From Planctomycetota bacterium (GTDB lineage Bacteria > Planctomycetota > UBA8108 > UBA1146), in NCBI GenBank assembly GCA_032128395.1, contig JAQBGV010000184.1:3907-67906 (forward strand): 64,000 bases of DNA, written 5' to 3'. The notes under the pieces are model-generated. The model ran no database searches. It had not been told where the DNA came from and was given only the letters and a program-made list of their open reading frames with translations. The translations under genes and the position numbers were made by a program. Positions 14,441 through 42,722 of the stretch are shown here, one piece after another; position 1 is the stretch's first letter; every line of letters starts with the position of its first letter.

Positions 14441-16072
14441 ATGGCAAAGCAGATCACATTCGACGACGCGGCCCGAGAGGCGCTGCTCGCCGGAGTGAGG
14501 AAGTTCGCCCGCGCGGTGAAGTCTACCCTCGGCCCTCGGGGTCGGTACGCGGTCATCGATCGCGGATGGGGTGCACCGAAACTCACCAAGGACGGCGCGA
14601 CCGTCGGAGACGAAGTCGAGCTCGGGGACCCGGTCCAGAACATCGCAGCCCGCATGATGCGGGAGGCAGCCGACAAGACCGCGAAAGAGGCGGGAGACGG
14701 GAGCACCACCGCGACCGTACTCGCGGAGGCGATCTTCCGTAACGGTCTCCGCAACGTCGTCGCCGGGGCGAACCCGATCCTGATCCAACGCGGGATCGCG
14801 GCCGCCGCCACGCGGGTGATCGACCGTCTGCACGAGATGGCATTCGAAGTCGAGGGTGACGAGCTCGTCCACGTCGCTACGATCGCCGCCAACAACGATG
14901 CGGTGATCGGAAAGCAGATCGCGAAGGCGCTCAGCGCAGTTGGCGAAGATGGTGTGATCAGCATTCAAGAGGGGAAGAGCCTCGAGACCACGCTCGACGT
15001 GGTGGAGGGTCTTCACTTCGACCGGGGGTACCTCTCCCAGTACTTCATCACCGATGCTGAAGCGTCGAAGGCGGTCATCGAAGATCCGTACATTCTCATC
15101 CTAGAGGAGAAGATCTCGAACCTCAGCCAGATCATTCCGGTGATGGAAGCAGTGCTCCAGAAGAAGAAGCCGCTCCTTTTCATCGCCGAGGACATCGATG
15201 GTGAGGCTCTCTCGACCCTAGTCGTGAACAACATGCGGGGCGTGCTGCGCTGCGCAGCGGTCAAGGCGCCGGGGTACGGCGATCGCCGGAAGGAGATGCT
15301 GACCGATATCGCGACCGCGACCGGGGGAACCGTGATCTTCAAAGATCTCGGCCTCGAGCCGGACTCGATCACCCTCGCCCACCTCGGTCGGGCGAAGAGG
15401 GTGGAGATCACCAGCAATCAGACGACGATCATCCGCGGGGCTGGCAAGAAGACTGCGGTCGAGGAGAGGGTCCGCCAGATCCGCCTCGAGCTGGAAGAAG
15501 CCCGGAGCGACTACGACAAGGAGAAGCTCCAAGAGCGGCTCGCTCGGCTCGTCGGCGGGATCGCCGAGATTCGCGTCGGGGGGGCCAGTGAGGCTGAGGT
15601 CAAGGAGCGGAAGAAGCGCTACGAGAACGCACTGAGTGCTACGCGATCCGCGGCCGAAGAGGGGATCCTCCCCGGGGGCGGGGTCGCGTTGATCCACGCG
15701 GGCGACGCGGTGTCTGTGATGCGCCTCAAGGACCCTCAGGAGAAGGTCGGAGCGCAGATCCTCGCGGTGGCTCTGGAGGCTCCGTTCCGTCAGCTCGCTC
15801 GAAACTCGGGGGAGGAGCCGAGCCAACTGCTCCGCAAGATTCGGGCTGCAAAAGAGCCGAGCTGGGGATTCGACTTCATGAAGAAAGAGGAGTGCGACCT
15901 GATCGAGTCCGGCGTCATCGACAGCTGCAGAGTCGTCACTTCGGCCCTGAAGAACGCTGTCTCGGTGGCGACGATGATCCTCACCTCGGACGCGGTGATC
16001 ACTGAGATTCCGAAGGAGACCGAGGACGAGCACGACCACGACCACGATGAGGCTGGGTTCGGCGGGTTCTGA
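14441..16072 (+). CDS. groEL: Chaperonin GroEL, copy 1, with His/Asp-rich C-terminal tail (HDHDHDEAGFGGF) instead of a GGM repeat
   Basis: MAKQITFDDAAREALLAGV..., GDGSTTATVLA ATP-binding motif, full-length Cpn60. Confidence 0.9.
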   Translation: MAKQITFDDAAREALLAGVRKFARAVKSTLGPRGRYAVIDRGWGAPKLTKDGATVGDEVELGDPVQNIAARMMREAADKTAKEAGDGSTTATVLAEAIFRNGLRNVVAGANPILIQRGIAAAATRVIDRLHEMAFEVEGDELVHVATIAANNDAVIGKQIAKALSAVGEDGVISIQEGKSLETTLDVVEGLHFDRGYLSQYFITDAEASKAVIEDPYILILEEKISNLSQIIPVMEAVLQKKKPLLFIAEDIDGEALSTLVVNNMRGVLRCAAVKAPGYGDRRKEMLTDIATATGGTVIFKDLGLEPDSITLAHLGRAKRVEITSNQTTIIRGAGKKTAVEERVRQIRLELEEARSDYDKEKLQERLARLVGGIAEIRVGGASEAEVKERKKRYENALSATRSAAEEGILPGGGVALIHAGDAVSVMRLKDPQEKVGAQILAVALEAPFRQLARNSGEEPSQLLRKIRAAKEPSWGFDFMKKEECDLIESGVIDSCRVVTSALKNAVSVATMILTSDAVITEIPKETEDEHDHDHDEAGFGGF

Positions 16073-16121
16073 TCGAGCGATCGTTCACCAGCACAACACA
16101 CTGACCGGATGGATGACGAGC

Positions 16122-17735
16122 ATGTCCAAGCAGATCCTTTTCGACGACGAGGCGCGCCGCCAGATGCTCTCCGGAGTACGCCAGCTCGCCCGGGCGGTCG
16201 GGCTCACGTATGGCCCCTCGGGGCGAAACGTGATGATCAATAAGAGTCTCGGCAAGGTGAGCGTAACGCGTGACGGCCTGAACGTCTCGCGCGAGGTCGA
16301 GATCGAGGAGCCGTTCCAGAACATGGGCGCAAAACTGCTCGGCGAAGTCGCGCAGAGGACCCACAAGGAGGTAGGGGATGGCACTACGAGCGCGGTGATC
16401 CTCGCGGACTCACTGATCCTCGAAGGACAACGATACGTTGGCCACGGCGTCAATCCGATCGCCCTCCGCGTTGGGATCGAGAAGGGCGTCGCGAGTGCGG
16501 TGGCCGCTCTCGAGAAGAGCGCGATTCCGGTCGACCAGCGCAAGATGATCGAACAGGTAGGAACGATCGCGAGCAATGACGCGGAGCTTGGCCAGCTCTT
16601 CGGCGAAGCGATGCACAAGGTCGGACTCCAGGGAGTCGTCACCGTGGAGGAGACCGACGGTGTAGAGACCCTCCTCGACCTGGTCGATGGATTCGAGATC
16701 GACAAGGGCTACGTCTCTCCCTATTTCATCACCGATGCCCAGAACCTAGAGGCGGTCCTCGATGACGTGCTGATCCTCGTCACCGACCGGAAGATTTCCT
16801 CGCTCGCCGAGATCCTCCCTGTGCTCGAGCAAGTGGTCACTTCCGGGAAACCGCTGCTCATCGTCGCCGATGACGTCACCGGCGAGGCTCTCGCCGCGCT
16901 GATTCTCAATCGGCTTCGGGGAGTCCTGAAGGTCGCCGCGATCAAGGCTCCGGGATTCGGAGATCGTCGCAAGGCGCTCCTCGAGGACTTCGCCGTGATG
17001 ACCGGCGGGACCTTCTTCGCGAAGGACACGGGCTTCGAATGGAGCAACACGACGACGAATGACCTCGGCCGGGCGAAGAGAGTCGAGATCTCGAAGGACA
17101 AGACGATCGTCTTCAAGGGGGCGGGGAAGAAGGCCGAGGTCGATGCTCGCTGCCGTCAAATCGAGGCGCAGATCGAGCAGACCACTTCGACCTACGACAA
17201 GGAGAAGCTCGAGGAGCGTCTCGCCAAGATCTCGGGGCAGATCGCAGTGATCCGGATCGGTGGCCATTCGGCAGTCGAGATCAAGGAGCGGAAGGGCCGC
17301 GCCGATAATGCGCTCCACGCCACCCGCGCGGCGATGGAGGAAGGGGTGATCCCAGGGGCGGGGACCGGTTACATCCGAGCTATCGCCGCAGTTCGGGAAA
17401 CACGGACCCGCGGTGACGAGAAGTTCGGGGTCGAGGTGGTCGCGCGAGCGTTGCGGGCCCCGCTGGTCCGGCTCGTCGACAATCTGGGACTCGACGGCCA
17501 GGCGATCGCGGGCGAAGTCGAGGAGCGTGGGGCCAAGGACGAGATTCACCACGGGTTCCTTGCGCAGAGCGGAAAAATTGTCGACCTGGTCCGCGCCGGC
17601 GTTCTCGATGCGGTGAAGGTGAGCCGGGTCTCGCTCCAGAACGCGGCGAGCGTGGCATCCCTCTACCTGACATCGGACACCGCGATCACGAATGTCGAGA
17701 AGAAGTCGGCGCCGGTCGAAGGGGCGATGCACTGA
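16122..17735 (+). CDS. groEL: Chaperonin GroEL, copy 2 (the annotated ORF from 16047 is a 5' extension)
   Basis: [16 protein letters not shown]..., [11 protein letters not shown] motif, full-length Cpn60; 50 bp after copy 1. Confidence 0.9.
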
Positions 17736-20131: not shown

Positions 20132-20731
20132 CTACTGGCTGTTCCCGATCAGACCCTTCGGAATGTCGGTGTCGGGGAATTTCTCCTTGGGAACGAACTT
20201 GCCGCTGTTGTCGGCGAAGTATGCGTTGACGCCGTGCTCGTGGTTTTCGTCGATTCCAGCGTCCTCATCCTTGACCGAGTCATCGCTGACGATGATCACG
20301 GTCCCCTTCGCGCTGTTGGTCTTCTGCACCGCGAGGTAGGCGTAGCTATTGTTCTCTTCGGTCAGGACGAACTTGTTGTCATCGTCGGTTTCCGCCGCGA
20401 TATCCAAGACGGCTGCGGGACAGATGAACTGCTCCGGCTTCAGTTCCCCGGGGAACCGGTCGACAAGTTTCTGGAACGACTCGAACGCGAGAGGGTTCTT
20501 TCCATTGCCGAAGGGGAACCTTCCTGAGTTCCCCGACTCATCTGCGTAGGCGAGTACCATCGCGCCGATCCCTTTGATCTTGCTCAGGCACTCGACTTCC
20601 TTCGCCTTCGTCCGTGCTCGGATGATGTTCGGAACTAGGAAACCAGCGAGCGCTCCGATGATGGCGACCACCACCAGTAGCTCGACCAATGTGAACCCGT
20701 TCCTGCGGGACGCCCCGTGGACCCTACCCAT
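20132..20731 (-). CDS. Prepilin-type N-terminal cleavage/methylation protein with C-terminal H-X9-D(G/N) (DUF1559-like) motif; PVC-type pseudopilin-like protein. The ORF's upstream Met at 20791 is less likely.
   Basis: Leader ...RRNG|FTLVELLVVVAIIGALAG with Phe+1/Glu+5; C-terminal HEHGVNAYFADNSGKFV resembles DUF1559 HxxGxNxxFxDGSV. Confidence 0.65.
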   Translation of the reverse strand: MGRVHGASRRNGFTLVELLVVVAIIGALAGFLVPNIIRARTKAKEVECLSKIKGIGAMVLAYADESGNSGRFPFGNGKNPLAFESFQKLVDRFPGELKPEQFICPAAVLDIAAETDDDNKFVLTEENNSYAYLAVQKTNSAKGTVIIVSDDSVKDEDAGIDENHEHGVNAYFADNSGKFVPKEKFPDTDIPKGLIGNSQ

Positions 20732-30588: not shown

Positions 30589-30714
30589 CGGATTCCGCTC
30601 CCCCGGCGAGGGATCCGTTCTCGACTCGCGTCCTCCTCCCACGTGGGGGATCCTCGGGCCCCGGCACCTCCGGATCGCCAGCTCCACCTCCATCCGACCG
30701 AGCTCGGGACCGAG

Positions 30715-31344
30715 ATGACCGAACGCGAGCCGCGCGGCGATGAGCTCCGGCCGACCCAGCTTCGAGAGCTGGTCGAGCGGGCTAGGAGTGGCGACCGCGA
30801 AGCGTTCACCGAACTGGTGGAACGGCACCGCGGGATCGCCGCGGCGAAGGCGTTCGGGATCCTCGGTGACGTGCACCTGACTGCGGATGCGTTGCAGGAG
30901 GCGTTCCTCAAGGCGTGGCAGAGGATCTTGACCCTGCGCGAACCGGAGCGGTTCTCAGGGTGGTTTCTGGCGATCGTCCAGAGGTCTTCGCTCGACCTTT
31001 CGCGACGACGCGGCCGTGTGTCGCTGCACGAGCAGGGGTGGGAAGAGCTGCCGGGGGAGGACGGAGCCGCTCCGGCGAAAGCGTCGGGGGCGGAGGCCCT
31101 CGTGCAGGAGGAACGCGGAGACCGGATCCGCGTGGCCCTTCGCGCCTTGCCTCCCGAATACCGTGAGGTGATCATCCTGAAGCACGCCGAGGGGCGCTCG
31201 TACCGCGAGATCGCCCGACTGCTCGGTACCACAGTGAAGGCGGTGGAGTCCCGCCTGTTCCGAGCCCGACAGCAACTCGGTCGGATGCTCGAGGAAAAGG
31301 AGCCGCCCGCTCGCGGGCGGCCTCCCAGAAAGGACGAGAGATGA
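30715..31344 (+). CDS. ECF (group IV) sigma-70 factor; alternative start at 30643
   Basis: Sigma-70 region 2 (LQEAFLKAWQRI) and region 4 (EVIILKHAEGRSYREIARLLGTTVKAVESRLFRARQQL). Confidence 0.8.
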   Translation: MTEREPRGDELRPTQLRELVERARSGDREAFTELVERHRGIAAAKAFGILGDVHLTADALQEAFLKAWQRILTLREPERFSGWFLAIVQRSSLDLSRRRGRVSLHEQGWEELPGEDGAAPAKASGAEALVQEERGDRIRVALRALPPEYREVIILKHAEGRSYREIARLLGTTVKAVESRLFRARQQLGRMLEEKEPPARGRPPRKDER

Positions 31345-32390
31345 CGCGGGCGATCTCGTGCGAGCTTGCGGACCGCTGGCTCTCGCGAGCGATCGACGAG
31401 GAGATCACCTCCGAAGAGGAGCAACTCCTCGAGTCGCATCTCGACACTTGCCCTCGCTGCCGCGAGGAGCGGGATCGTCTCGCCGTGGAGATCGGCCGGA
31501 TCGATCGCGGCTTTGCTGGGATCTCCGAGGAGCTCGACGCCCTGCTCAGGGGGCGGATGGGTCCGGAGCAGATCCTCGATGCTGAGATTCGGTCGTCGGC
31601 TGCTCCCCGCGGACGCCGGCTCGGCGCGCTCGCAGCCGTGGTTGCCATGGCGCTTGTCGCCGCTCTTCTGTTCTGGACCCTGCCCGACGGCTCTGCTACC
31701 GCTCCTCGAGTGATCGTCGAGTGGGGGGATGCCGGAGTCGAGTGGACGAGCGACGGAGTCCTTCGGTCGTTCGCTGGAAGTGGCGAGCAGTCGCTGGTAG
31801 CCGGGGATCGACTTCGACTCCCCGCGGGGGGAGATGCCCGGCTCACGTTCCCCGACGGCAGCATCGGCCGCCTCGGCCCCCAGAGCCAGCTCGCGTTCCG
31901 CGCGATCGGAAGCGACGACGAACTCGAGCTGGGCATCGGTCGCGCCGCCTTCGATATCACTCCCCGGGACGACGCACATTTCGTAGTGCTCACTCCCCTC
32001 GTTCGAATCGAAGTTGTCGGAACCCGATTCGGAGTGATTCACGAGAACGGTTGGACCGATGTGACGGTGGAGGAGGGAGAGGTCGTGGTCTCGCGGCGCA
32101 CCCGTGAGCCCGCGTTGATCCATCTCGGACCGGGGGCTGGGCTCAAACTTTCTTCGCAGACGATGTTCTACGACAGCGGTGGTTACATCTTGAGAGAGGG
32201 CGAACCGGATGCACGAATCGATTCGGGACCGCCGAGTTCCGGCCCTGGAACGAATGCGGGGGGGGACGCGGGACCGGACCCCACCGGCACCACCCCGCCG
32301 GGCTCGACTCCGCTGGACGGAGATGGTGAGCGAAAAAGACCGCTCGATATGCCTCCGGGGGAAACGCGGGGGAGTGGCGGCGGAAACTGA
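31341..32390 (+). CDS. Anti-sigma factor with N-terminal zf-HC2-like domain, one TM helix and periplasmic FecR domain
   Basis: HLDTCPRCREE motif, TM LGALAAVVAMALVAALLFW, FecR-like beta region; ATGA overlap with the sigma gene. Confidence 0.7.
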   Translation: MTRAISCELADRWLSRAIDEEITSEEEQLLESHLDTCPRCREERDRLAVEIGRIDRGFAGISEELDALLRGRMGPEQILDAEIRSSAAPRGRRLGALAAVVAMALVAALLFWTLPDGSATAPRVIVEWGDAGVEWTSDGVLRSFAGSGEQSLVAGDRLRLPAGGDARLTFPDGSIGRLGPQSQLAFRAIGSDDELELGIGRAAFDITPRDDAHFVVLTPLVRIEVVGTRFGVIHENGWTDVTVEEGEVVVSRRTREPALIHLGPGAGLKLSSQTMFYDSGGYILREGEPDARIDSGPPSSGPGTNAGGDAGPDPTGTTPPGSTPLDGDGERKRPLDMPPGETRGSGGGN

Positions 32391-32511: not shown

Positions 32512-33515
32512 TCCTGCGAGAAGAACACCAAACCTTCGATGAGATAGACCTCGCGGTTCTCGTAGATCCACCCCTCGTAGAATGAGTTCCCCTCGCGCTT
32601 CCAGGTGACACGATGCGGGTAGCCCCAGGCGAGGACGACTTCCTCTCGTTTCATCCCCTCCGCGACCTCATGTGACCCCGCCAGTTCTTTGTACTGCGGA
32701 GTGCTGCGCCCTCGGAGGAGGGAAGCTTGTTGGCGCCGCTCGCTCCAGCGCGCGATTTCATCGCGTAGGTGCGACTGATCGAGGGTCATCCGCTCCCCAT
32801 CCCGCTCGATCATGCCGGTCTCGTGCAGAAAAACGGATCGAGGTCGCCACCCCTTGCTCGACTCGATCAGTCCCAGGGACTCGAAGGTGCTCGTGACCGA
32901 GCGCTCGTTGCCGTACTTCTCGGCGAGTTGATTTGCGTAGGCGATCCATCGATCGTCCCCCTCGAAGTGCGGGTGGCCGATCTTGAGCCATGCGACTGCG
33001 GACTCCTGGTCGCGACCAAGTTCATCGGTGGCGAGGTCGGCCCAACGAGAGGCCACCTGTTCGCGGAACTCGATTTGTTCCTCACCGGTGGAGAGGCCGA
33101 GAGCCCAACCGATCACCGCTCGGCGGCGCGGGGACGGGGTCGAATCCAGGCGAGCAGAGAGCCCGGCGAACAAACTATCCGCCGCCGGTGTTCCCTGGAT
33201 GTCCTCCACCCGATACTCCCAACTCCCACCGTTCGATCGATTCGCGCGAGCGTGAATCTCGAGGATCCCTCGGCGGGTCTTCGAGTCCATGAGGACCTGG
33301 AATCGCTTCTCCTCAGGCACGATGAACTTCGCCTCGCACCCCTCGAGTTCCATTCGGACTCCGACTTGTGAGCTGTAGCGGGCGAGGACGCGGACCTGCG
33401 CTCCCTCGGTCGGCGAGAAGTGGGCGAGCTCCTCGGCGACGACCTGGGGTACGGTCTCCTCACCGCCGGGAGGCGCGACGAGGACGATGGCGAGGAGCAG
33501 CACGAGTCCGCTCAT
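32508..33515 (-). CDS. Secreted hypothetical protein, translationally coupled (ATGA overlap) to the upstream large regulatory protein; possible BamE-like C-terminal fold
   Basis: Signal/TM MSGLVLLLAIVLVAPPGG; coding-like; the annotated ORF start at 33626 is an extension. Confidence 0.45.
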   Translation of the reverse strand: MSGLVLLLAIVLVAPPGGEETVPQVVAEELAHFSPTEGAQVRVLARYSSQVGVRMELEGCEAKFIVPEEKRFQVLMDSKTRRGILEIHARANRSNGGSWEYRVEDIQGTPAADSLFAGLSARLDSTPSPRRRAVIGWALGLSTGEEQIEFREQVASRWADLATDELGRDQESAVAWLKIGHPHFEGDDRWIAYANQLAEKYGNERSVTSTFESLGLIESSKGWRPRSVFLHETGMIERDGERMTLDQSHLRDEIARWSERRQQASLLRGRSTPQYKELAGSHEVAEGMKREEVVLAWGYPHRVTWKREGNSFYEGWIYENREVYLIEGLVFFSQD

Positions 33516-36475
33516 CGAACTCTCCCTTCGAAGAGGAGCAGCTGGCCAGTCACGAGGAGGACGAGCACATCTCCGTCGGCAGTTGAGGCCAGACCCACGA
33601 CCGGGGCCGAGACCTGGATCGACCACTGCGGATCCCCGGTGGGGGAGACGCAGTACAGGCGACCATCGCGGCCGCCGAAGAACGTCTCCTCACCCGTCGT
33701 CAGCGGTGGACAGCTGAGGATCGTGGGGGCGGGGAACGCGGTCCACTTCGATCCGTCGAACTCGACCCATCGCCGATCCGTAGTCCCATAGAAGAGAGTG
33801 CCATCCCGTTCGACGACGTCGGTTGCAGGAGCGGGCCACTGCTCCACTCCCTCGGGCGCCTGGCGCGTCCCGTTACGGAGGAGCAGAGATCCATCGGAGA
33901 GAACCGCGGAGATCTCGCTCGGGTAGGCGCGCTCGTGGAGCAGCGCGAGGCCGGGGAGCTCGAGGATCCTCACCCGGTCGGCGCCATCGGTCACGACGAG
34001 CACGTCCCCTCGCACTGCGAGGCTCTTCACAGGGAATCCGGGTTCGGAACGGGCGATCACCCGACCGGTGTTCCGGTCGAGAAGTTGCACCCGCCCCGTC
34101 TCGTCCCCGATCGCCATGTCTCCCCCTGGAATCGAGCTGACCGCGAGTACCGGGGAATCGAGGCGGACCCCCCAACGGGTTTCCCAGCCAGTGGTCTCGA
34201 CGCAGTGGATCTCGCCGTCGTAGCCGGCGATCACGATCACATCTTCTTCCGCCACTACTCTCGCCGAGGGGTGCCCCGGTTTCCCACCGATGAACACCCG
34301 GCGGGCGGTCTTTGTGGCCTCTCGACTGTCGGGGAGCGCATAGACGCGTCCATCCCGACACGGGACCAGGATGAACCCTGGGATCGAGGTTGCGGCGCGA
34401 TCGAGCCCGCCGGGGAGAGCTCCCGCCGCGAGGGGGGCACGGGTCATCTGGATGCGAAGGCGAGCCCGGCCATCGTCGGTGTGTTTTAGCTCCTGGTCTT
34501 CGCAGCCGGGGCGGGACAGACGGATCACGAACGGCTCGGATCCCGGTTCGAAGTGATGGACGTAAGGGGTTCGACCGATGCCGACCCCCGCGACGTCGAT
34601 CCGCGCGCCGGGAGGGTCGGTCTCGATCGAGAGGGGGAGACGGATCTCCGCCTGGACCTCGAGGGGAAGGCTCCGGACCGGCCCCTCGAGGAGGCGATCG
34701 AGGGAGGCTCGCGCCTCCTTGAATCGACCCTCGTTCTCAGCGGTCCTCGAACTGGTGAGCAGCTCCTCTGCGTGCTGACGACGTCGCTCACGCGACTGAC
34801 GGTCGCGTTGCTCGAGGTCCTCGACGCGGGCCTTGTCTTCCTGCCGGAGGCGCACGATACGGGCATCGAGATCCTGGAGTGCGTCGCGGCTCCGTGACGC
34901 GACGGTGGACATCCCGTAGTCGGCGACGATCTCGCGGAGGTGCGCCCGTGCTTCCTCGAGTTGAACGGTCTCGGCCTCGGCGATCTGGAGGCGCAAGCTC
35001 TCCTGGAAGAGGCCCCGTGCACGGGTTTCGTAACGGAGTGCGGGAATCGCGGCGGCAACGATGAGGACGGTCGCGACGGTCAAAACGATGCGGCGAATGC
35101 GGCGAAATTTCTGGACTCCCTCCTCCCTGTGGATGAGGGACTCGAGCTTGTTGCGCAGCCCAGTGATCTCAGGGTCGATCTCAAACAGGAGTCGAGCGGC
35201 GCGAATCGACTCCGGTCGACTCTTCGTCTCTTCAGCGAGTCGGAGTGCCCGCTCGAGGTAGTCGACGGCGAGGCCGATCTGGCCGATCTTCTGGGCGAGT
35301 TCCCCGCGTTCCACCCAATACTGGAACTTGCCGCGTTCGCTCTCCTCGAGCTCAGCGAGAAGTGCTTCTGCCTCGTGGAACTCACCCTGCCGCTTGAGCG
35401 CGTTGAGTAGCTCGACTCGAAGCTCTTCGAGCGAACGAGGGGAGGCGGCACTGCGCAGGGTCCAGAGTTGTTGCAGGACCGCGAGGTCGTTCGGGTGGAG
35501 ATCGCGGAGGACCCGTCCGATCTCCCATGCCTCGGCCATCCGACTCTCGAGGCGGAGGCGCTCGAGCGCCTGGAAGAGGATTGCCGAGGCATCCTTCTTG
35601 CGTCCCACCTCGACCATGTAGCGGCCGACTTCGACCAGGAACGAGGCGTCCCGGCTCTGCGGGATCCCCCACTCCTGGAGGAAGCGGTAAAGATCGGCCG
35701 CGCGATCCCGCTCGTTGTGTTTCCGGTGCTGTCGCGCGACCTCGAGCATTTCGGTGAAGTCGAGGGTGCGGAGCCACCCCTCCTCCACGAACCGGTAGAG
35801 GATCTTCAGGGTCTGGAACCGACTGGTCGGGGCGACCCTTTGGATCTGCTCGACCGGGGCGGACTGCGCGCAGTACCCCCAGATCTCCCGGTCACGGTCG
35901 GAGATCTCGGCCCCGGCGGGAATCGCCTCGACCTGTCGGGCGACCCAGATCTTCGGATCGGGGAGCCGGGTTCTGATGATGCGGGACTCGTCGAGTTGAC
36001 GCAGACCCTCGATGAGCACCGACTGCGGGTCGACCCGGACCTGGGTGTACTTCTGCATGGGTTCGAGGAGATCGGGTGGACAGAAGTCGGGGACGAATTC
36101 GAAGTCCCCCTCTTCCCACATCAGGAGCTCGTAGAGCTCTTCCTCGAACTTGGTTCGGAGTGCGGCCTGGAGGTGTTCCGGCTCGATGACCCCCTGCTCG
36201 ATGAGGATGCGACCGAACAGCTTGTCAGAGTTCTTCTGCTCTTCGACCGCGGCTTCGATCTGTTCCCTGGAGACCACCCCGGCGCGCAGGAGGACCTCTC
36301 CTAGGAGGATCGTTCCGGACCCGGAACCGAGGAAAGCGATCGAGCCGGTCGCGAAGTATATCGTCTTTTTTTCGTGGCGGGAGGTGACGTAGAGGGTGCC
36401 GGTGTGCTGATTGCAGGCCAGGGTCTGGAAGAGTTCTCCCAAACCGAAGTGCTGCAAATGCCCTTTGAGCGCCAT
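33512..36475 (-). CDS. 987-aa multidomain membrane protein: DUF4388-like N-terminus, tandem MshEN/T2SSE_N motifs, helical/TPR-like region, TM helix, coiled coil, PEGA domain, PQQ-like beta-propeller
   Basis: MALKGHLQHFGLGELFQTLACNQHTGTLYV (DUF4388-like); LLGEVLLRAGVVSREQIEAAVEEQ...LFGRILIEQGVIEPEHLQAAL (MshEN motifs); TM VLTVATVLIVAAAIPAL; PEGA-like IDVAGVGIGRTPYVHHFEPG; PQQ blades. ATG at 36475 chosen; upstream 62 codons of the annotated ORF are rejected. Confidence 0.6.
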   Translation of the reverse strand: MALKGHLQHFGLGELFQTLACNQHTGTLYVTSRHEKKTIYFATGSIAFLGSGSGTILLGEVLLRAGVVSREQIEAAVEEQKNSDKLFGRILIEQGVIEPEHLQAALRTKFEEELYELLMWEEGDFEFVPDFCPPDLLEPMQKYTQVRVDPQSVLIEGLRQLDESRIIRTRLPDPKIWVARQVEAIPAGAEISDRDREIWGYCAQSAPVEQIQRVAPTSRFQTLKILYRFVEEGWLRTLDFTEMLEVARQHRKHNERDRAADLYRFLQEWGIPQSRDASFLVEVGRYMVEVGRKKDASAILFQALERLRLESRMAEAWEIGRVLRDLHPNDLAVLQQLWTLRSAASPRSLEELRVELLNALKRQGEFHEAEALLAELEESERGKFQYWVERGELAQKIGQIGLAVDYLERALRLAEETKSRPESIRAARLLFEIDPEITGLRNKLESLIHREEGVQKFRRIRRIVLTVATVLIVAAAIPALRYETRARGLFQESLRLQIAEAETVQLEEARAHLREIVADYGMSTVASRSRDALQDLDARIVRLRQEDKARVEDLEQRDRQSRERRRQHAEELLTSSRTAENEGRFKEARASLDRLLEGPVRSLPLEVQAEIRLPLSIETDPPGARIDVAGVGIGRTPYVHHFEPGSEPFVIRLSRPGCEDQELKHTDDGRARLRIQMTRAPLAAGALPGGLDRAATSIPGFILVPCRDGRVYALPDSREATKTARRVFIGGKPGHPSARVVAEEDVIVIAGYDGEIHCVETTGWETRWGVRLDSPVLAVSSIPGGDMAIGDETGRVQLLDRNTGRVIARSEPGFPVKSLAVRGDVLVVTDGADRVRILELPGLALLHERAYPSEISAVLSDGSLLLRNGTRQAPEGVEQWPAPATDVVERDGTLFYGTTDRRWVEFDGSKWTAFPAPTILSCPPLTTGEETFFGGRDGRLYCVSPTGDPQWSIQVSAPVVGLASTADGDVLVLLVTGQLLLFEGRVR

Positions 36476-36645
36476 GCTTGCTCCGGCTCGACCCACGGTT
36501 CGCCTATGCCGATTCGGCCGGGGCGAACGGAACCGAAGACCGCGGAGCACCCCCCCATTCCCGGACTCCCGCGGAGGAGGATGGTCCTCGACGCCGGGGG
36601 AGGTACGATCCGGGATCGCTCGCCTGCGATCTCCGAGAAGGATAC

Positions 36646-37887
36646 GGCATGACTCTCGCATCGACGAACGAGGAGGGGGACCGGAGCCGCGTCCAACCCC
36701 GAGTTCAGCTCTCCCCGGGGCTCTATGTCCACATCCCGTTCTGTACGGTCCGGTGCTCGTATTGTGACTTTCACGTCGCCGGATTTCGGGAGGGGATCGC
36801 GGTTCGATACGTGGACACGCTCCTCGAGGAGGCGCGAGAATTGTCTGAGGAGGGGTTTCGTCCGCAGACGATCTTCATCGGCGGAGGGACGCCATCCACG
36901 CTCGCGATCCGCGACTGGACGAGGCTCCTCGGTGGATTGTCGGAGTTCTTCGGTGGGGAACAGCTTCTCGAGTGGACCGTCGAAGCAAATCCGGGGACGG
37001 TCGACGGTCCGAAGGCCCGCATCGCTCGGGATGCGGGGGTGGATCGGATCAGTACCGGCGCACAGACCTTCGACCCGGCGGGACTCGCGGTCCTCGGAAG
37101 GCAACATGGAGCCGATGTGGTCGCTGGCGCCCACGAGATCCTGCGCGATGCGGGATTCGAGCGGCTGAGTCTCGACCTGATCATCGGGTGGCCAGGACAG
37201 ACGATCGACTCCCTCGCCGGGGATCTCCGCGCGATCGCAGAGATCGATCCCGACCATGTCAGCCTGTATCACCTCAGCTACGAGAAGGGGACGCTGCTCG
37301 AGCGCAGACGTCTCGCGGGACAAATTGCTCCACTGTCGGACCCCGCAGCGCTCCGGGTCGCGCGTCGCGCATTGGGCGGCTTGGGCGCAGCGGGCTATAC
37401 TCGCTACGAGGTGTCGAACCTCTGCCGATCCGGGCAGGCCTCGCTGCACAACCTCAACTACTGGCAGCGTGGGACCTACCGCGGGATCGGGTCCGGGGCC
37501 GCGAGCTTCGACGGCCGCCTGCGCTGGCGAAACCGACCGGATGTCGGCGCATACCTGCGAGGAGGCGGCCGACCGGAGCGGGTCGAGGTGGAGGAGCTCA
37601 GTGCGGAGACCGCACTCGAGGAGCTCCTCCTCCTCACCCTGCGGCTGACGGATGGGATCACCCTCGACCGGTTCTGGGAGTTCGCGGGCACCTCGCCACA
37701 GGATTTGTGCCGGGAGGCCCTGCCCGAGTTGGTCGAAGCGGGTCTCCTCTGCTGCGACGATGGAACGATGCGGGCCACGGCACGTGGCTTCGAGGTGCTC
37801 GACGCTGTGATCGTGCGCCTCTGGGAAGACTGTCAGCGTTTCGCGAGGCGAAGAGAATGTCCCAGCCGAACTCCTCTCCAGACTTGA
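36646..37887 (+). CDS. hemW: Radical SAM HemN/HemW-family protein (heme chaperone / oxygen-independent coproporphyrinogen oxidase-like)
   Basis: LYVHIPFCTVRCSYCDF CxxxCxxC radical SAM motif, HemN_C-like tail; the annotated ORF start at 36478 is likely an extension. Confidence 0.75.
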   Translation, partial: GMTLASTNEEGDRSRVQPRVQLSPGLYVHIPFCTVRCSYCDFHVAGFREGIAVRYVDTLLEEARELSEEGFRPQTIFIGGGTPSTLAIRDWTRLLGGLSEFFGGEQLLEWTVEANPGTVDGPKARIARDAGVDRISTGAQTFDPAGLAVLGRQHGADVVAGAHEILRDAGFERLSLDLIIGWPGQTIDSLAGDLRAIAEIDPDHVSLYHLSYEKGTLLERRRLAGQIAPLSDPAALRVARRALGGLGAAGYTRYEVSNLCRSGQASLHNLNYWQRGTYRGIGSGAASFDGRLRWRNRPDVGAYLRGGGRPERVEVEELSAETALEELLLLTLRLTDGITLDRFWEFAGTSPQDLCREALPELVEAGLLCCDDGTMRATARGFEVLDAVIVRLWEDCQRFARRRECPSRTPLQT

Positions 37888-38438
37888 TGTTGCTCCTTCG
37901 GATGATCCGCTACCGCGGATGGCTCGAGGAGCCGGAAATCGAGTCCGTTCTTTCCGAGTGTGGAATGCAGGTGAGCGCGGACGAGCTCCTCGAGTTCCTC
38001 TGCGATGGCGAGCACCTCAGCTCGGACCAGGCCGAAGATGCCCGCCGGTTCCTCCGCGAGAAGAGCCGCTCCCTGCGCCTGAACTCGGGGGATCGGTTCC
38101 GGATCGACCGGAGCTTCGGGCAGATCGCGCTCGAGCACGGCTGGCTCGACGCCCCGGGGCTCGAAGCGGCCCTCCTCGAGCAGGAGCGCCTCAGGCGCCT
38201 GCGCCTGAACTTCAGAATCGGTGAGGTCCTGGTTCGACTCGGTTCCCTCCAGGTCGACCAGGTTCGGTCGATTCTGAAGGAGCAGGGATTCGACCTCTCT
38301 TGCTGTCGCGATTGCGACACACTGATCGAGGGCGCCACCAGCGATGTGGGGGACGGGACCTGCCCCGAGTGTGGCGGCGAACTCCGTCCCCCCGTGTTCC
38401 TCGATCCCGTCCCCGCCGACCGCCACAGGTCGAAGTAG
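37857..38438 (+). CDS. MshEN-like tandem-motif protein with C-terminal four-Cys zinc ribbon
   Basis: FGQIALEHGWLDAPGLEAALLEQ and RIGEVLVRLGSLQVDQVRSILKEQ motifs; CCRDCD...CPECGG; the long annotated ORF from 36972 is artefactual upstream of this Met. Confidence 0.45.
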   Translation: MSQPNSSPDLMLLLRMIRYRGWLEEPEIESVLSECGMQVSADELLEFLCDGEHLSSDQAEDARRFLREKSRSLRLNSGDRFRIDRSFGQIALEHGWLDAPGLEAALLEQERLRRLRLNFRIGEVLVRLGSLQVDQVRSILKEQGFDLSCCRDCDTLIEGATSDVGDGTCPECGGELRPPVFLDPVPADRHRSK

Positions 38439-38596
38439 CGGATCGCGTCCCGACCTCGCGCCATCCCTGGCAATTCGCCTGAGAAAGTGCTTCCGATCCG
38501 AACGATCGGAAGCACTCTCTCATCCTAGTGTTGGCACCAGGCTCTTGCTTCCGTCCCGATCCCAGGTTGGCATCGGGGCCGGGACCGAGTCCCGGG

Positions 38597-39184
38597 ATGG
38601 GAGGCGGCATGGATCCGAGAGAACTCTTGCTCGGACGTGAGCTCGTCGCGAGCGAACTTCTGCGCCCTGAGCACCTTCGGATCGCGCTCGACTATCAGGC
38701 CCAGTTGCACGGCCGGCTCGAGGACATTCTGGTCAAGCTCGACTTCATCGACGAGCGGAAGCTGAGTGAGTTCGTCGCCGAGCGCGAGCATATGCGCACC
38801 GTCGACCTCACCAGTCGGGAGATCGACGAACAGCTGATGGAGCGGATCCCTCGCGACGTGATCGAGCGGCACGAAGTGCTGCCGTTCCGACTCGACGCCG
38901 AGACGGTCCTCCTCGCGATGAGCGATCCGACTGATTTCCGGGCGATCGACGAGGTGCAGTTCCTGACGAGTTGCAAGGTCGAGACCGCCATCGCCCCGCG
39001 CACCGCCCTCCGGGAGCGGATCGAACGATACTACGACACCCTCCCTGCACCCCCGCCCGCCCCGCTTCCGCTCGAGGAGCGACTCCTCGAGCGGGTTGCG
39101 GATCCCGCGATGCAGGCGCTGGCCCGGATTCTCCTGCGCAAGGGCGTCATTCAAGCGGAGGATTGGGAGCAGGAGATTCGCTAG
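38597..39184 (+). CDS. Stand-alone T2SSE_N (GspE/PilB N-terminal) domain protein
   Basis: LLGRELVASELLRPEHLRIALDYQ...LEDILVKLDFIDERKLSEFVAE...IDEQLMERIPRDVIERHEVLPFRLDAETVLLAMSDPTDFRAIDEVQFLT matches the GspE N1 domain consensus end to end. Confidence 0.6.
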   Translation: MGGGMDPRELLLGRELVASELLRPEHLRIALDYQAQLHGRLEDILVKLDFIDERKLSEFVAEREHMRTVDLTSREIDEQLMERIPRDVIERHEVLPFRLDAETVLLAMSDPTDFRAIDEVQFLTSCKVETAIAPRTALRERIERYYDTLPAPPPAPLPLEERLLERVADPAMQALARILLRKGVIQAEDWEQEIR

Positions 39185-39295: not shown

Positions 39296-39964
39296 CTAGT
39301 CGTAGAGATCGTCCCCGCGTGCTCCGCGATCGAGCGTGCCGTTCTCGGAGACGCTCTCGTCGAGGCAATTCGGGCCGGTCGAGTAGACTCGCCAGCTTCC
39401 GTCCTCGGCGAGGAGGCGGTAGGGCGCTCCGAACGGATCGAGCAAGCTACCCACAGGGGAGATCGGAATTCCCTCGAATGCCTTCGGGTCCGCGGCGCGC
39501 AACGTCTCACCCCATCGCTCGATCAGGGGACTCCCGCCGGGGGCCGGCAGGTGCTTCTCGACCGCGCTCTGGATCTTCTCGATCTGGTCGTGGGTCTGGT
39601 CGATGAGCTTGAGTTGAGCTCGCCCCCCCGACAGCGTCCCGATCATGAGCTCCACGGCGAGGAGGAGGACGAAAACGACGCCGATCAGGAACGGGAGAAG
39701 CGCCAGCGAGACACGTCGGGGGTGCCCGCTCGCAGACCGGAGCGGTTCGCGGAACTGGAGATGGCGCGGCGGTGGCGACTCGATCCTGCCGAGCTGCCAA
39801 CGAAGGAGCTCCTGGTCGAGGCGGATCGCGTCTGCAAGCTCCCGGCAACTCCAGCAGCGCTGCAGATGGTCCTCGGCCTCGACCGAGGTCAGATCCTCAC
39901 AGACCCATGCCTCGAGCGCGCGCCGGCACTCCTCCGGGAGCACGCCGGGGGAATTCGTGCTCAT
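39296..39964 (-). CDS. Anti-sigma factor (zf-HC2) fused to a pseudopilin-like TM helix and GspG-like periplasmic domain
   Basis: N-terminal HLQRCWSCREL motif; TM LLLAVELMIGTLSG resembling the pilin hydrophobic helix with Glu; C-terminal DPFGAPYRLLAEDGSWRVYSTGPN...GDDL resembling the GspG DPWGNxYxL...G.DG region; ATGA overlap with upstream ECF sigma. Confidence 0.55.
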   Translation of the reverse strand: MSTNSPGVLPEECRRALEAWVCEDLTSVEAEDHLQRCWSCRELADAIRLDQELLRWQLGRIESPPPRHLQFREPLRSASGHPRRVSLALLPFLIGVVFVLLLAVELMIGTLSGGRAQLKLIDQTHDQIEKIQSAVEKHLPAPGGSPLIERWGETLRAADPKAFEGIPISPVGSLLDPFGAPYRLLAEDGSWRVYSTGPNCLDESVSENGTLDRGARGDDLYD

Positions 39965-40602
39965 TCTCGATCTCCTTCTCCGGAATCTGTCTTTTCGACC
40001 TCCCGCGATTCCCGCGGCAGGGATTCCTTCGCGAGCCTCTCGCGGAGGAGCAGATGCGCACGAAAGATCCGGTTCCGGATCGTTCCCTCCGGCTCTTCGA
40101 GGAGTCGCGCGATCTGAGCCGGGGTCAGCCCCGACCAGTATCTCAGGATCAAGACCGTGCGGTACAGCTCGGGGATCTCCCCGAGAATCGTGCGGAGAGC
40201 CTCTGCTCGCTGCGGGTCGAGCCCAGGCTCGCCAGCGCTCACCTCGGCGGGTTCTTCACGCTCGGGTAGCCGGGTCTCGGGCCTCACCCCGAACCATCGG
40301 TGCGAGTCGATCACCTTTCTCGACGCGATCGCGAGTATCCAGGAGACCGCGCTCTCCGAATTCCGCAGTGAGCCACGCTTCTCCCAGGCCTGGAGAAAGC
40401 TCTCCTGAGTCAGATCCTCGGCTCGCTCTCGGTCCGAAATCCGCTGCCGGATGAAGACGTAGACGAGCCCCCAGAGTTGCTCGACAACCCGGTGGAAGGC
40501 TTCGCGATCCCCCGCGAAGGCGAGCCGGAGGGTATCCGGATCGGGTCGGTGTCGTTTCCCACCCTGCTCGTTGGTCCGATCCTCGGCCTCCTCCGAGCAC
40601 AT
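39961..40602 (-). CDS. ECF (group IV) sigma-70 factor
   Basis: Region 2 EDLTQESFLQAWEK, region 4 VLILRYWSGLTPAQIARLLEEPEGTIRNRIFRAHLLL. Confidence 0.8.
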   Translation of the reverse strand: MCSEEAEDRTNEQGGKRHRPDPDTLRLAFAGDREAFHRVVEQLWGLVYVFIRQRISDRERAEDLTQESFLQAWEKRGSLRNSESAVSWILAIASRKVIDSHRWFGVRPETRLPEREEPAEVSAGEPGLDPQRAEALRTILGEIPELYRTVLILRYWSGLTPAQIARLLEEPEGTIRNRIFRAHLLLRERLAKESLPRESREVEKTDSGEGDRE

Positions 40603-40784
40603 CCTGAGGTCCCTTCGACCGAGGGGAGTCGTGTCGCATCCACCCGCAGCTGGAGACGTTGCGGCGACGGGGCCGTTGCTCCTCCGTTTGACGCCGGCTC
40701 GTACCCCATCATAGGCTTCCTCAAGGAACCATCGATGGATCGAACCTCACCAGATCCTCGGACACAGGATGGGGAACGGGTGCA

Positions 40785-41789
40785 ATGGCGAAGAAGAAGA
40801 AGAGCGAAGAAGAGTTGTCTCCGGCGATGCAGACGGAGGACCTGACCGGTGCATTCCCCCCGGGGGACTTCACCGGCTCCTTCCCGACCGAAGGGCTCGG
40901 CCATCCGGTCGGCGCGACCGGGGAGCATGGGCTCCGGACCGAAGGTCACTCCGGTGACCTTGGCATGCCGACGGAGGGATTCACGGGTGAGCAGCCGATC
41001 CCGACGGAGGGTTTTACTTCCTCCTACGGCATGCCCACCAGCAGCATGACCGGGGACCATGGCATTTTGCCCACGGAGGGATTCATCGCGCATGGAGCAC
41101 CGATGGGAGGCCAGGAGCTCGATGAACTCGATGACGTGCTCGTTCTCCTCCCGGAGGAAGACGACGTACGGGGCTACACCGGCGAGGTGATCCGCACCGA
41201 GGGGATGGGTGATCCGACGATCCAAGCGACGACCGGGTACGTGCCTTCGAGCGAGTCCCCGACCGGGATCGAGGATGTCCAACTCCTTTCACAGCATCCC
41301 GACTTCGGGTTGCACCCAGTCGACACTCTCCCTGACGCGCAGGTCCTCGAAGAGCTCCCCGACATCGAAGATGTCGAGGACATCACCTCCCTCGTCGAGG
41401 AGGCAGTCGCCTACGACCTCCCCCCGCCGATGGCGGACTTCGAAGATGAGTTCGGCGCGATGCCGAGCCGCTCCGGTCGCCGTCGAAGCGGCTTCGGCGC
41501 GTTTCTCCGTATTGCCGCCGCGGCCGCGTTGCTCGTGACCGGGGTTCTCTACGGACCGGAGCTCTACGACCGCTATCTCGAGCAGGGCAACACAGCCCTC
41601 GCGAGCGGCTCGAACGGCGGCGGTGGCACGTCCACGGGCCCACCCGTGGCGATCACCGATCCCGTCACCACTGGCCCGGGATCCGGTGACCCAGGGGCCG
41701 GTGTCCATCCGGTCCAGGTCCAGTTTCGGGATTGGGTCGATGGGGTGTTGGCCGCAAACTTCGGGACCAACGTCCCGTCGGATCGATAG
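40785..41789 (+). CDS. Acidic hypothetical protein with degenerate (P/R)TEG(F/L/H) repeats and a C-terminal hydrophobic segment
   Basis: Six spaced xTEGx repeats mirrored by repeated ccgacggagggattcac DNA units; TM-like FGAFLRIAAAAALLVTGVLYG. Confidence 0.4.
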   Translation: MAKKKKSEEELSPAMQTEDLTGAFPPGDFTGSFPTEGLGHPVGATGEHGLRTEGHSGDLGMPTEGFTGEQPIPTEGFTSSYGMPTSSMTGDHGILPTEGFIAHGAPMGGQELDELDDVLVLLPEEDDVRGYTGEVIRTEGMGDPTIQATTGYVPSSESPTGIEDVQLLSQHPDFGLHPVDTLPDAQVLEELPDIEDVEDITSLVEEAVAYDLPPPMADFEDEFGAMPSRSGRRRSGFGAFLRIAAAAALLVTGVLYGPELYDRYLEQGNTALASGSNGGGGTSTGPPVAITDPVTTGPGSGDPGAGVHPVQVQFRDWVDGVLAANFGTNVPSDR

Positions 41790-41807
41790 AAGGGAGCGAG
41801 GAGCCCA

Positions 41808-42722
41808 ATGAAGCGCTACCTGATCGGGACCACATTTGCCTCTCTGCTGCTCGTCCTCGCCTGCTCGGCCCCGGCCGAGGCGGGAAGCGTCTTCCTGAAG
41901 AACGGCTACATCCTTCAGGGCCGGATCGTCGAGCGCGGCGAGGGAGTCGTCGTCCTCGGATGGCAGAACGGCAGAGTGACGATCCACGATCGATTCATCG
42001 ATGAAGTCCTCCTGGATCCCTCCGAGGAGGAGATGATTCGCAGCAAGCGAGAGCTCGATGCGGTCGAAGCGGAGCAGACCGCCGTCGCGATCGAGGACTT
42101 CACCCTACGAAGCAATGAGGTGATCGCCCTTCCGGTGAGTTACCAGTCGATCCTCACACGCGACACGTCTGATCCGGGGACTCCGATCGGCCCCGGCGGG
42201 GCCATGACCATCGTGGATCCACTCGCCCAGGTGACGACCGATCCCAGGGGATCGACCCCTGGAACCGTGGTCGGAGTCGTCCCGAGTCCCTCCGATTTGG
42301 AAAAAATATTTCCGGCTCTCGGGGTGGCGATCGAGGTCCCCGAAGGGTGGCGGGTCGATGAGAAGCCCGACTCGCTGCGAGTCGGATTGGTGGGGAAGCC
42401 CGCAGTCGCCGCGCTCACCGTCGACCTCTGGCACGGGAAGAACCTCAAGGCACTCGAGGCTCTCCGCATCATCGAAGACAGTCTCACCTCGAGCTTTCCG
42501 TCCGCCTCGATCGAAGCGGGTGCGGAGATGGTCATCGGCGGAAAAGCCGCGATTTCATTGGTCTGCCGCGATACGGAGAGGCGAATCGGGTGCCGTCAAA
42601 ATGTGATCGAGACGTTGAACGGAGTGTTCGTGCTGGGCATGTACCTCCCGCTCGATGCCGATCCGACGATGGCACTCGCACTCGATGATGTTCTGACTTC
42701 GCTTCGCTTCATCTCCGAGTAG
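41808..42722 (+). CDS. Secreted hypothetical protein with signal peptide
   Basis: MKRYLIGTTFASLLLVLACSAPAEA signal; coding-like composition; no recognizable domain. Confidence 0.45.
   Translation: MKRYLIGTTFASLLLVLACSAPAEAGSVFLKNGYILQGRIVERGEGVVVLGWQNGRVTIHDRFIDEVLLDPSEEEMIRSKRELDAVEAEQTAVAIEDFTLRSNEVIALPVSYQSILTRDTSDPGTPIGPGGAMTIVDPLAQVTTDPRGSTPGTVVGVVPSPSDLEKIFPALGVAIEVPEGWRVDEKPDSLRVGLVGKPAVAALTVDLWHGKNLKALEALRIIEDSLTSSFPSASIEAGAEMVIGGKAAISLVCRDTERRIGCRQNVIETLNGVFVLGMYLPLDADPTMALALDDVLTSLRFISE

Follow-up and report, generated by a model that had tools for sequence, protein, structure and literature searches.

In MshE of Vibrio cholerae (5HTL), cyclic diguanylate (c-di-GMP) is bound through two copies of the motif RLGxx(L)(V/I)xxG(I/F)(L/V)xxxxLxxxLxxQ, separated by a 5-residue spacer, and mutation of either glycine at position 3 (Gly3; G11L or G40I) abolishes binding (Wang et al., 2016; PMC5013675). 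The unit that carries these two tandem 24-residue motifs, a bundle of four helices spanning 53 residues, is termed MshEN_N or 'α-clip'. In the GSPII-B domain of Thermus thermophilus PilF (8PDK), binding at 6 nM goes with Lys or Leu at position 1; the consensus has been widened to (R/K/L)LG..., with a hydrophobic replacement at position 1 taken as a predictor of high affinity (PMC11731258, published in 2024). MshEN fusions to REC, HD-GYP, CheA, CheX, cyclases, Ser/Thr kinases and glycosyltransferases have been listed, together with stand-alone (MshEN_N)2 and an MshEN-HD-GYP-REC-DUF4388 architecture, and up to 22 copies occur in Myxococcus (Wang et al., 2016; PMC5013675). The supplement of the same study includes copies embedded in PATAN domains, e.g. 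residues 51-129 of MXAN_4739, followed by the PATAN 'LYRLF..G.YEF' motif. The α-helical insertion of PATAN and its kinship to GspE/PilB N-termini reportedly trace to Makarova et al. (2006), and PATAN domains of cyanobacteria bind PilB1 at its N-terminal region and PilC at its N-terminus (10.1101/2021.06.11.447907). Here we describe four MshEN_N-containing proteins, g29, g31, g32 and g11, encoded in a 64-kb stretch of a Planctomycetota contig (JAQBGV010000184.1; GC content ~65%), the whole of which is referred to as the window (Table 1).

Each of these four proteins holds one or two MshEN_N units outside any ATPase, an assignment that we regard as practically certain. Our own gene calling on the window gave 47 genes, to whose products the scans below refer. 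NF053729 (NCBIfam, 'c-di-GMP_motif, MshE-related'), a 53-position curated hidden Markov model (HMM) of the MshE c-di-GMP site with a cut-off of 38 bits, matched exactly four of the 47 proteins and was the most often matched family in the window. Three matches lay above the cut-off (g29, 52.8 bits, residues 58-108; g11, 52.2 bits, residues 11-65; g32, 45.8 bits, residues 8-58), and NCBI annotation with this model would label these three proteins as c-di-GMP-binding. All 13 members of the g31 family matched as well (best E-value 2e-11). Profile-profile alignment of the four families with hhalign gave 73-97% probability over the helical unit. AlphaFold2 (AF2) models of g31 (13-sequence alignment) and g11 (24 sequences) were compared with the PDB by Foldseek, and their top matches were exclusively c-di-GMP-bound PilF GSPII-B and MshE, with a probability of 1.00, 29-36% identity over 58-63 columns and a root-mean-square deviation (rmsd) of 0.8-2.8 Å (mostly 0.8-2 Å; the largest, 2.8 Å, for the g11 model against 5htl). 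Matches to the extended-consensus motif numbered three against 0.09 expected (none of 1000 residue shuffles reached three), and tandem core motifs two against 0.005 expected in residue-shuffled controls. The T2SSE AAA+ ATPase domain is absent from all four proteins, from the other window proteins scanned and from the top families of the whole-window scan. With the NF053729 matches and the structural matches, this upholds the claim of an initial annotation of the window that four of its proteins carry tandem MshEN-type motifs without a GspE ATPase.

That annotation had also expected HMM searches to recover the domain in all four proteins, which held for NF053729 (g31 below its cut-off) and failed for PF05157, the Pfam MshEN/T2SSE_N model. 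PF05157 matched g32 alone (83 bits), at profile positions 4-86, which cover the α/β subdomain rather than the helical motifs, and gave no match in g29, g31 or g11. No Pfam model at all matched g31, and g11 gave just a sub-threshold match to PF14332 (DUF4388/PatA_N, i.e. PATAN; a 122-position model with a cut-off of 25 bits) and a spurious one to FumaraseC_C. Taken alone, Pfam would refute three of the four proteins, a reading that we set aside because PF05157 chiefly describes the α/β subdomain and for that reason misses these three. Pfam picks up α-clips solely through positions 33-80 of PF14332 and through FumaraseC_C (PF10415), which matches α-clip hairpins spuriously, also in the precomputed annotations of many g11 homologues (P0032-P0141), and is a likely source of mis-annotation.

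The DUF4388-MshEN-transmembrane-PEGA-PQQ layout proposed for the 987-aa protein g29 was confirmed. PF14332 covers residues 4-164 (1e-26, 93.6 bits), and the α-helical insertion of this PATAN domain coincides with the NF053729 match; further Pfam matches are to PQQ_2 (33.8 bits), PEGA (21 bits) and TPR. Residues 1-461, comprising PATAN and a helical/TPR region, are predicted to be cytoplasmic, and the single transmembrane (TM) helix (Kyte-Doolittle window score) is followed by a periplasmic coiled region, PEGA and the β-propeller. In hhalign, the g29 unit aligned to the g32 family with 95.7% probability. In the position of its MshEN_N unit, at the known α-helical insertion, g29 resembles the PATAN domains of PixE and PixG of Synechocystis; unlike PATAN/PatA systems it has no receiver (REC) domain (no Response_reg match in Pfam) and is membrane-anchored with periplasmic PEGA and β-propeller domains, and a PilB or PilC partner is not evident. 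An identical protein is encoded on contig JAQBCW010000211 of the metagenome-assembled genome (MAG) GCA_032124895.1, where the same gene set was called independently (987, 193 and 191 aa).

For g31, the annotation as a 193-aa MshEN and zinc-ribbon protein likewise stands, on the strength of the NF053729 matches in its family, the AF2 and Foldseek results and the invariant Cys residues, with the qualification that its first repeat pair is degenerate. The AF2 model (predicted local distance difference test, pLDDT, 72) has eight helices and, after them, a small β zinc ribbon. The first pair forms four helices in this model (pLDDT 79-90; hhalign 50-89%), and in the L010 orthologue it reads IFGRIAL...DLGQLLL. 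The second pair superposes on 8pdk and 5htl with an rmsd of 0.9-1.5 Å, and residues 82-147 match PilF GSPII-B weakly in phmmer (E 0.002), GSPII-B being the best structural and sequence match of this pair; R85, S86, F87, G88, Q109, R120, G122 and Q143 are invariant in the family alignment (A1). Within its pilus ATPase, PilF GSPII-B includes a C-terminal α/β subdomain that adds to affinity; g29, g31 and g11 have none. The zinc ribbon gave weak rubrerythrin-like and Zn_ribbon matches, and neither g31 nor g32 has a TM segment.

A word-indexed homologue search returned 17 clusters for the g31 family and 14 for the g32 family. Searched exhaustively with HMMER, the g31 profile reached 1669 clusters (50% identity, metagenomes) at E<=1e-3, 32 of them at E<=1e-30, and many of the matches are the N-terminal 180 residues of far longer proteins. 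Of ten long proteins with the module that were sampled, six proved to be Ser/Thr kinases, certain of them also carrying FGE-sulfatase, TPR or Kelch domains, and another was an amidase, the kinase-type carriers falling among proteins P0188, P0197, P0204, P0220, P0240 and P0245. Pfam has no model for an (MshEN_N)2-zinc-ribbon module. Because matches to its profile head many kinases and other long proteins, g31 represents the free-standing version of an unnamed, widespread (MshEN_N)2-zinc-ribbon input module.

The third protein of the block, g32, alone of the four has the α/β subdomain after the helical unit and hence a full MshEN domain. The '196-aa full T2SSE_N protein' of the initial annotation was thus correct in its domain and not in its length, which is 191 aa in our calls. 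Full-length phmmer alignments reach the PilB N-terminus (3jc8, 2e-20), MshE (5htl, 3e-10) and PilF, and g32 covers only positions 2-138 of TIGR02538. It resembles the PilB N-terminus of Myxococcus xanthus (3JC8) and Geobacter (5TSG) over PilB residues ~2-140, both subdomains included, and differs from PilB proteins in standing alone, without ATPase, and in having an extra conserved C-terminal hairpin. In the orthologues at L010 and L019 the α/β subdomain is gone, with the helical unit and the hairpin kept.

The 81-aa protein g11 is a bare four-helix bundle whose model has 5htl, 8pe0 and 8pdk as top PDB matches. Its highly conserved family comprises proteins of 71-90 aa in at least 118 clusters (55-87% identity), mostly from marine or environmental Planctomycetota. 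The gene is flanked by the end of the dcw cluster (murC-murB plus an unannotated gene) on one side and by groEL on the other (L022, 6001-6225; L023, 6001-6228), next to a conserved protein of ~590-690 aa without Pfam match; in one contig the g11 relative lies on the opposite strand, and one 9.2-Mb chromosome has two copies. The initial annotation placed g11 after ftsQ and with the other three genes. Its MshEN_N domain is borne out by NF053729 and the AF2 model; the gene called ftsQ (10659-11525, +) drew no match from Pfam or NCBIfam at E<=0.01, its label resting on its place after murB only.

For a comparison of gene neighbourhoods, 11 informative loci were drawn from Planctomycetota MAGs, among them one on a 7.9-Mb contig and one on a 9.2-Mb chromosome, by placing g31 and g32 family members on contigs and by scanning a genome collection with the g31 alignment. 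The order and orientation g28-g29 (-), g31-g32 (+), g33-g34 (-), g35-g36 (+) are kept in the 11 loci, even where g29 and g31 are only 24-33% identical to their window counterparts. The neighbourhood conservation that the initial annotation had proposed as a check thus holds for g29, g31 and g32 with an adjacent anti-sigma/ECF (extracytoplasmic function) sigma pair, at g29 identities as low as 24-35%. The hemW-like gene g30, whose 3' end overlaps the start of g31 by 31 nt in the window, separates g29 from g31 in six loci, is missing from the other five and was rejected as a part of the module on that ground; where it is absent, g29 and g31 diverge from one common intergenic region. In 213 kb of related loci scanned, the motif occurs only in orthologues of the four genes.

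Among the flanking regulators, g34 and g33 make up an ECF sigma factor and its partner of zinc-binding anti-sigma (ZAS) type, with genes overlapping by 4 nt; C13, H33, C37 and C40 of g33 are invariant in its alignment (A3), without a match to the zf-HC2 Pfam model itself. The position of the second sigma/anti-sigma pair (g26/g27) is conserved in L005, L007 and L015-L018, and g26 alone was detected in L020 and L021. The initial annotation had described the anti-sigma factor beside the block as of pseudopilin type. Its anti-sigma nature is borne out by the ZAS motif, the TM helix and the overlap with the sigma gene. The periplasmic part of g33 had no Pfam match even at E<=10, comparison with PDB sequences returned nothing by single sequence, family profile or a 41-aa C-terminal peptide, and BLAST against the pilin-like g18 of the window was negative. 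By eye only, its C-terminus (DPxGxPY...SxGPxG...GDD) resembles that of GspG. L010 and L016-L018 lack this periplasmic domain or have one that does not align, and so it cannot form an integral part of the conserved block. Elsewhere in the window there are a prepilin peptidase gene (A24_N_bact and Peptidase_A24; 59713-60804, +) and a gene for a protein with a pilin-like hydrophobic N-terminus and no Pfam match (20132-20689, -).

Of the readings considered, the likeliest is that g29, g31 and g32 make up a lineage-specific Planctomycetota envelope-signalling module that reads c-di-GMP, with g32 as adaptor and g11 independent, a proposal that seems to us evenly balanced; that the three form a functional unit falls just short of that. 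In such a module, g29 and g31 would read the cytoplasmic c-di-GMP level, and this reading would be coupled to the periplasmic β-propeller/PEGA sensor or scaffold of g29 through contacts of its PATAN domain with the MshEN units of g32 and/or g31, by analogy with cyanobacterial PATAN-PilB. Such contacts are a reasonable guess because g32 resembles the PilB N-terminus, to which cyanobacterial PATAN binds. Having lost its canonical site, g32 may act as a protein-binding adaptor, like the degenerate MshEN of XpsE and X. citri PilB, and output might be channelled via the ECF sigma/anti-sigma pair(s) on its flanks or else via an unlinked pilus or secretion apparatus. Near cell-wall and division genes, g11 may work independently. 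A bolder version is improbable: the block as a clade-specific, c-di-GMP-gated trans-envelope switch, in which g29 senses the state of the periplasm by its β-propeller/PEGA domains and cytoplasmic c-di-GMP by its PATAN-embedded MshEN_N unit and recruits g32 and g31, and the neighbouring ECF sigma factor is released or sequestered via the ZAS anti-sigma factor, g11 separately linking c-di-GMP to wall growth or division. If true, the switch would be the second c-di-GMP-controlled sigma/anti-sigma case, structurally unrelated to the first, RsiG-WhiG. In Streptomyces, RsiG is reportedly a helical-hairpin protein that uses c-di-GMP to control sigma(WhiG), with a fold and a motif (ExxxSxxRxxxQxxxD) different from MshEN. 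Some Planctomycetota lack FtsZ, and a link of g11 to wall growth or division would matter if this lineage does.

The initial annotation had taken absence of the contact residues as refuting its claim; on that standard the claim stands for g29, in part for g31 and g11, and fails for g32, most contact positions being kept in three of the four proteins. Shared with MshE are the tandem 24-residue motifs forming a four-helix bundle (seen in the g31 and g11 models) and, in all four proteins, the NF053729 match, and MshE is among the top structural matches. In g29 both motifs fit the (R/K/L)LG…L…L…Q consensus, except for Lys at position 24 of motif II, and across its family Gly3 is invariant in both motifs, the spacer is 5 and motif I is the canonical R[LI]GE[IV]L in most relatives. 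At position 1, g29 and g11 are like PilF GSPII-B, which has Lys or Leu for Arg, and so fit (R/K/L)LG.... RSFGQIA...LE.ALLEQ and FR[IL]GEV...IL.EQ are invariant in the g31 family, several relatives having a textbook motif II, and FGE.A...LYEAL..Q and LGQ.L...G in the g11 family. Since Gly3, the Leu cluster and Gln24 are kept under strong purifying selection, we infer that g29, g31 (second pair) and g11 are candidate c-di-GMP receptors, and binding by at least two of the proteins appears slightly favoured. Several observations weigh against this reading. The strict and relaxed 24-residue patterns of Wang et al. gave no match in any of the six frames of the window, mainly because position 1 is Leu or Ser in most copies here, where MshE has Arg; absence of the site was our first interpretation, dropped since PilF GSPII-B allows Leu at this position and NF053729 matches. 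In the second pair of g31, motif II fits and motif I has Ser at position 1, and g31 itself scored only 23.7 bits with NF053729 (residues 87-143, E 3e-5), below the cut-off. In g11, motif I fits and motif II lacks Gln24 (Leu in g11, Leu or Ile in the family), and the spacers of g31 (10) and g11 (11) contrast with the canonical 5. The spacer of g32 is 5, but its motif II has Glu for Gly3 and Arg at position 24. Because Gly3 of motif II is lost across the clade (replaced by Glu, Arg, Gln, Thr or Pro, with Gly3 of motif I varying too), canonical c-di-GMP binding by g32 is improbable; Gly is kept at this position in the distant homologues P0013 and P0014. Moreover, no GGDEF, EAL or HD-GYP gene was found among the window proteins scanned. 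The α-clips could instead be pure protein-interaction or dimerization hairpins without nucleotide ligand, the cluster signalling independently of c-di-GMP. Ligand-free precedents exist in the N-termini of XpsE/GspE, in PilF GSPII-A and in the PilZ-binding N-terminus of X. citri PilB, and the degenerate second motif of g32 is like that of such non-binding homologues (7LKM). Besides the unmatched original patterns and the g31 and g11 spacers of twice the canonical length, this explanation draws on the loss of both Gly3 and Gln24 from motif II of g32, on the documented ability of such substitutions to end binding and on the presence of 7lkm, the PilB-PilZ complex, among the structural matches. 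Yet the deep-invariant positions of g29, g31 and g11 are the ligand contacts Gly3, Leu17/21 and Gln24, the curated c-di-GMP-site HMM places three proteins above its cut-off, and a Leu in position 1 marks a variant of high affinity, not a defect, so that we hold ligand-free hairpins to be rather unlikely.

The reading as a module faces further difficulties in the genomic context. Synteny reaches at least 20 kb, taking in a TPR/peptidase-like protein, RsgA, the second ECF sigma/FecR anti-sigma pair, a PKD protein and RND efflux genes, and therefore conservation alone does not mark the limits of a functional unit; P0014, a distant MshEN protein that stands alone, lies in an unrelated gene context; g11, 22 kb from the block and in its own conserved dcw-groEL locus, was rejected as a block member; and a shared ECF-type promoter was sought in the divergent intergenic regions and not found, leaving no tie from the sigma factors to g29 or g31. 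Given the extent of synteny and the context of P0014, co-location could be inherited macro-synteny, bringing together three unrelated representatives of a domain family simply abundant in the lineage, as the 1669 clusters of the g31-type module alone and the 22 MshEN genes of Myxococcus would allow. The core order, however, outlasts gain and loss of hemW and change of the distal flanks (L010, and L007/L013 compared with the window), g29 and g31 diverge from their common intergenic region wherever hemW is absent, and the flanks of ~10 kb around each locus hold no further NF053729-type motif; we consider mere inheritance unlikely. A still less probable alternative would make these proteins auxiliary regulators serving a type IV pilus or a type II secretion system encoded elsewhere, the PATAN domain of g29 and g32 competing with or bridging PilB and PilC and the sigma factors being incidental. 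The binding of PATAN to the N-termini of PilB1 and PilC, the full-length match of g32 to the PilB N-terminus and the presence in the window of the prepilin peptidase (59713-60804) and the pilin-like N-terminus (20132-20689) are in its favour, but no PilB/GspE, PilC, PilM or GspL gene was found among the scanned window proteins or in the conserved block, and the pseudopilin label of g33 finds no support, the Pfam, PDB and BLAST comparisons all being negative.

The c-di-GMP-reading module would be of interest because receptors are the part of a c-di-GMP network that is hard to find, and this locus offers three or four easily expressed candidates in new architectures (PATAN-TM-PEGA-β-propeller, (MshEN_N)2-zinc-ribbon and a bare 81-aa bundle), the block pairing its candidates with two ECF sigma/anti-sigma systems. 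Neither the zinc-ribbon fusion of g31 nor the architecture of g29 is in the published architecture table of Wang et al. (2016), and our literature search found no account of PATAN-TM-PEGA-β-propeller proteins, of the (MshEN_N)2-zinc-ribbon module (kinase fusions included) or of the Planctomycetota block, and no study of c-di-GMP signalling in Planctomycetota. The suggestion of an undescribed signalling unit is therefore tenable for the block, which we did not find described, and not for its components as such, non-ATPase, stand-alone and PATAN-embedded MshEN having been catalogued (Wang et al., 2016). Since the domain type is already known, the block is a plausible candidate for a lineage-specific signalling locus. 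If binding is true, the MshEN repertoire would widen, the rule that Leu at position 1 means high affinity could be tested outside pilus ATPases, and the (MshEN_N)2-zinc-ribbon module would become a candidate c-di-GMP input domain of Ser/Thr kinases; if false, the locus would be an ordinary case of a common helical interaction module. It is a good experimental entry to c-di-GMP signalling in Planctomycetota, and would not surprise a specialist.

Table 1. Positions in the 64-kb window of the MshEN_N-containing genes, their parts and the neighbouring genes.
Feature	Positions	Strand	Description
g29, 987 aa	33512..36475	-	PATAN with embedded MshEN_N, helical/TPR, TM, PEGA, PQQ/BamB-like β-propeller (Pfam)
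g29 MshEN_N unit, residues 57-109	36149..36307	-	motif I LLGEVLLRAGVVSREQIEAAVEEQ, 5-residue spacer, motif II LFGRILIEQGVIEPEHLQAALRTK (NF053729)
g29 single TM helix, residues 462-480	35036..35092	-	Kyte-Doolittle 2.27
g31, 193 aa, soluble	37857..38438	+	two MshEN_N pairs, CxxC...CxxC zinc ribbon, FLDxV tail (alignment A1, NF053729, AF2 and Foldseek)
g31 first repeat pair, residues ~10-64	37884..38048	+	degenerate here (no Gly3); distant relatives keep it intact
g31 second repeat pair, residues 86-143	38112..38285	+	motif I SFGQIALEHGWLDAPGLEAALLEQ, 10-residue spacer, motif II RIGEVLVRLGSLQVDQVRSILKEQ
g31 zinc ribbon, C150, C153, C169, C172	38304..38372	+	four Cys invariant in A1; strands in AF2 model
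g32, 191 aa, soluble	38609..39184	+	stand-alone full MshEN domain resembling PilB N-terminus, plus C-terminal hairpin (PF05157)
g32 MshEN_N unit, residues 7-59	38627..38785	+	motif I LLGRELVASELLRPEHLRIALDYQ, 5-residue spacer, motif II RLEDILVKLDFIDERKLSEFVAER
g32 α/β subdomain (MshEN_C/T2SSE_N1)	38795..39040	+	PF05157 positions 4-86
g32 C-terminal hairpin DP..AL..LL..GV[IV]..EW	39095..39181	+	in all family members, truncated ones included
g11, 81 aa	11706..11951	+	stand-alone MshEN_N four-helix bundle (NF053729 52.2 bits; AF2 pLDDT 84.6)
g28, 335 aa	32508..33515	-	no known domain; start overlaps g29 stop by 4 nt; conserved beside g29
g30	36649..37887	+	HemW/HemN-like radical SAM protein (Pfam Radical_SAM and HemN_C); variable passenger between g29 and g31
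g33 anti-sigma factor	39296..39964	-	ZAS-type H-x3-C-x2-C, TM helix 78-96, variable periplasmic domain
g34 ECF sigma factor	39961..40602	-	Sigma70_r2 and r4_2; TIGR02937 71.5 bits
g35 (334 aa, acidic, one TM helix) and g36 (304 aa, signal/lipoprotein-like)	40785..42722	+	conserved neighbours, no Pfam match
g26 ECF sigma and g27 zf-HC2/FecR anti-sigma	30643..32390	+	second sigma/anti-sigma pair flanking the block (Pfam)

No Pfam or NCBIfam model matched g28, orthologues of which are present in nine loci, and g35 and g36 also have orthologues in relatives. Upstream of g35 (40603-40784) lies a sigma70-like element, TTGACG-N17-ATAGGC, conserved in L005, L007, L015 and L019 and reading TTGACA-N17-TATCCT in L010. 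Positions 14441-17735 (+) hold two tandem GroEL genes and, after them, genes for DnaJ, GrpE and a zinc-ribbon protein of FmdB type.

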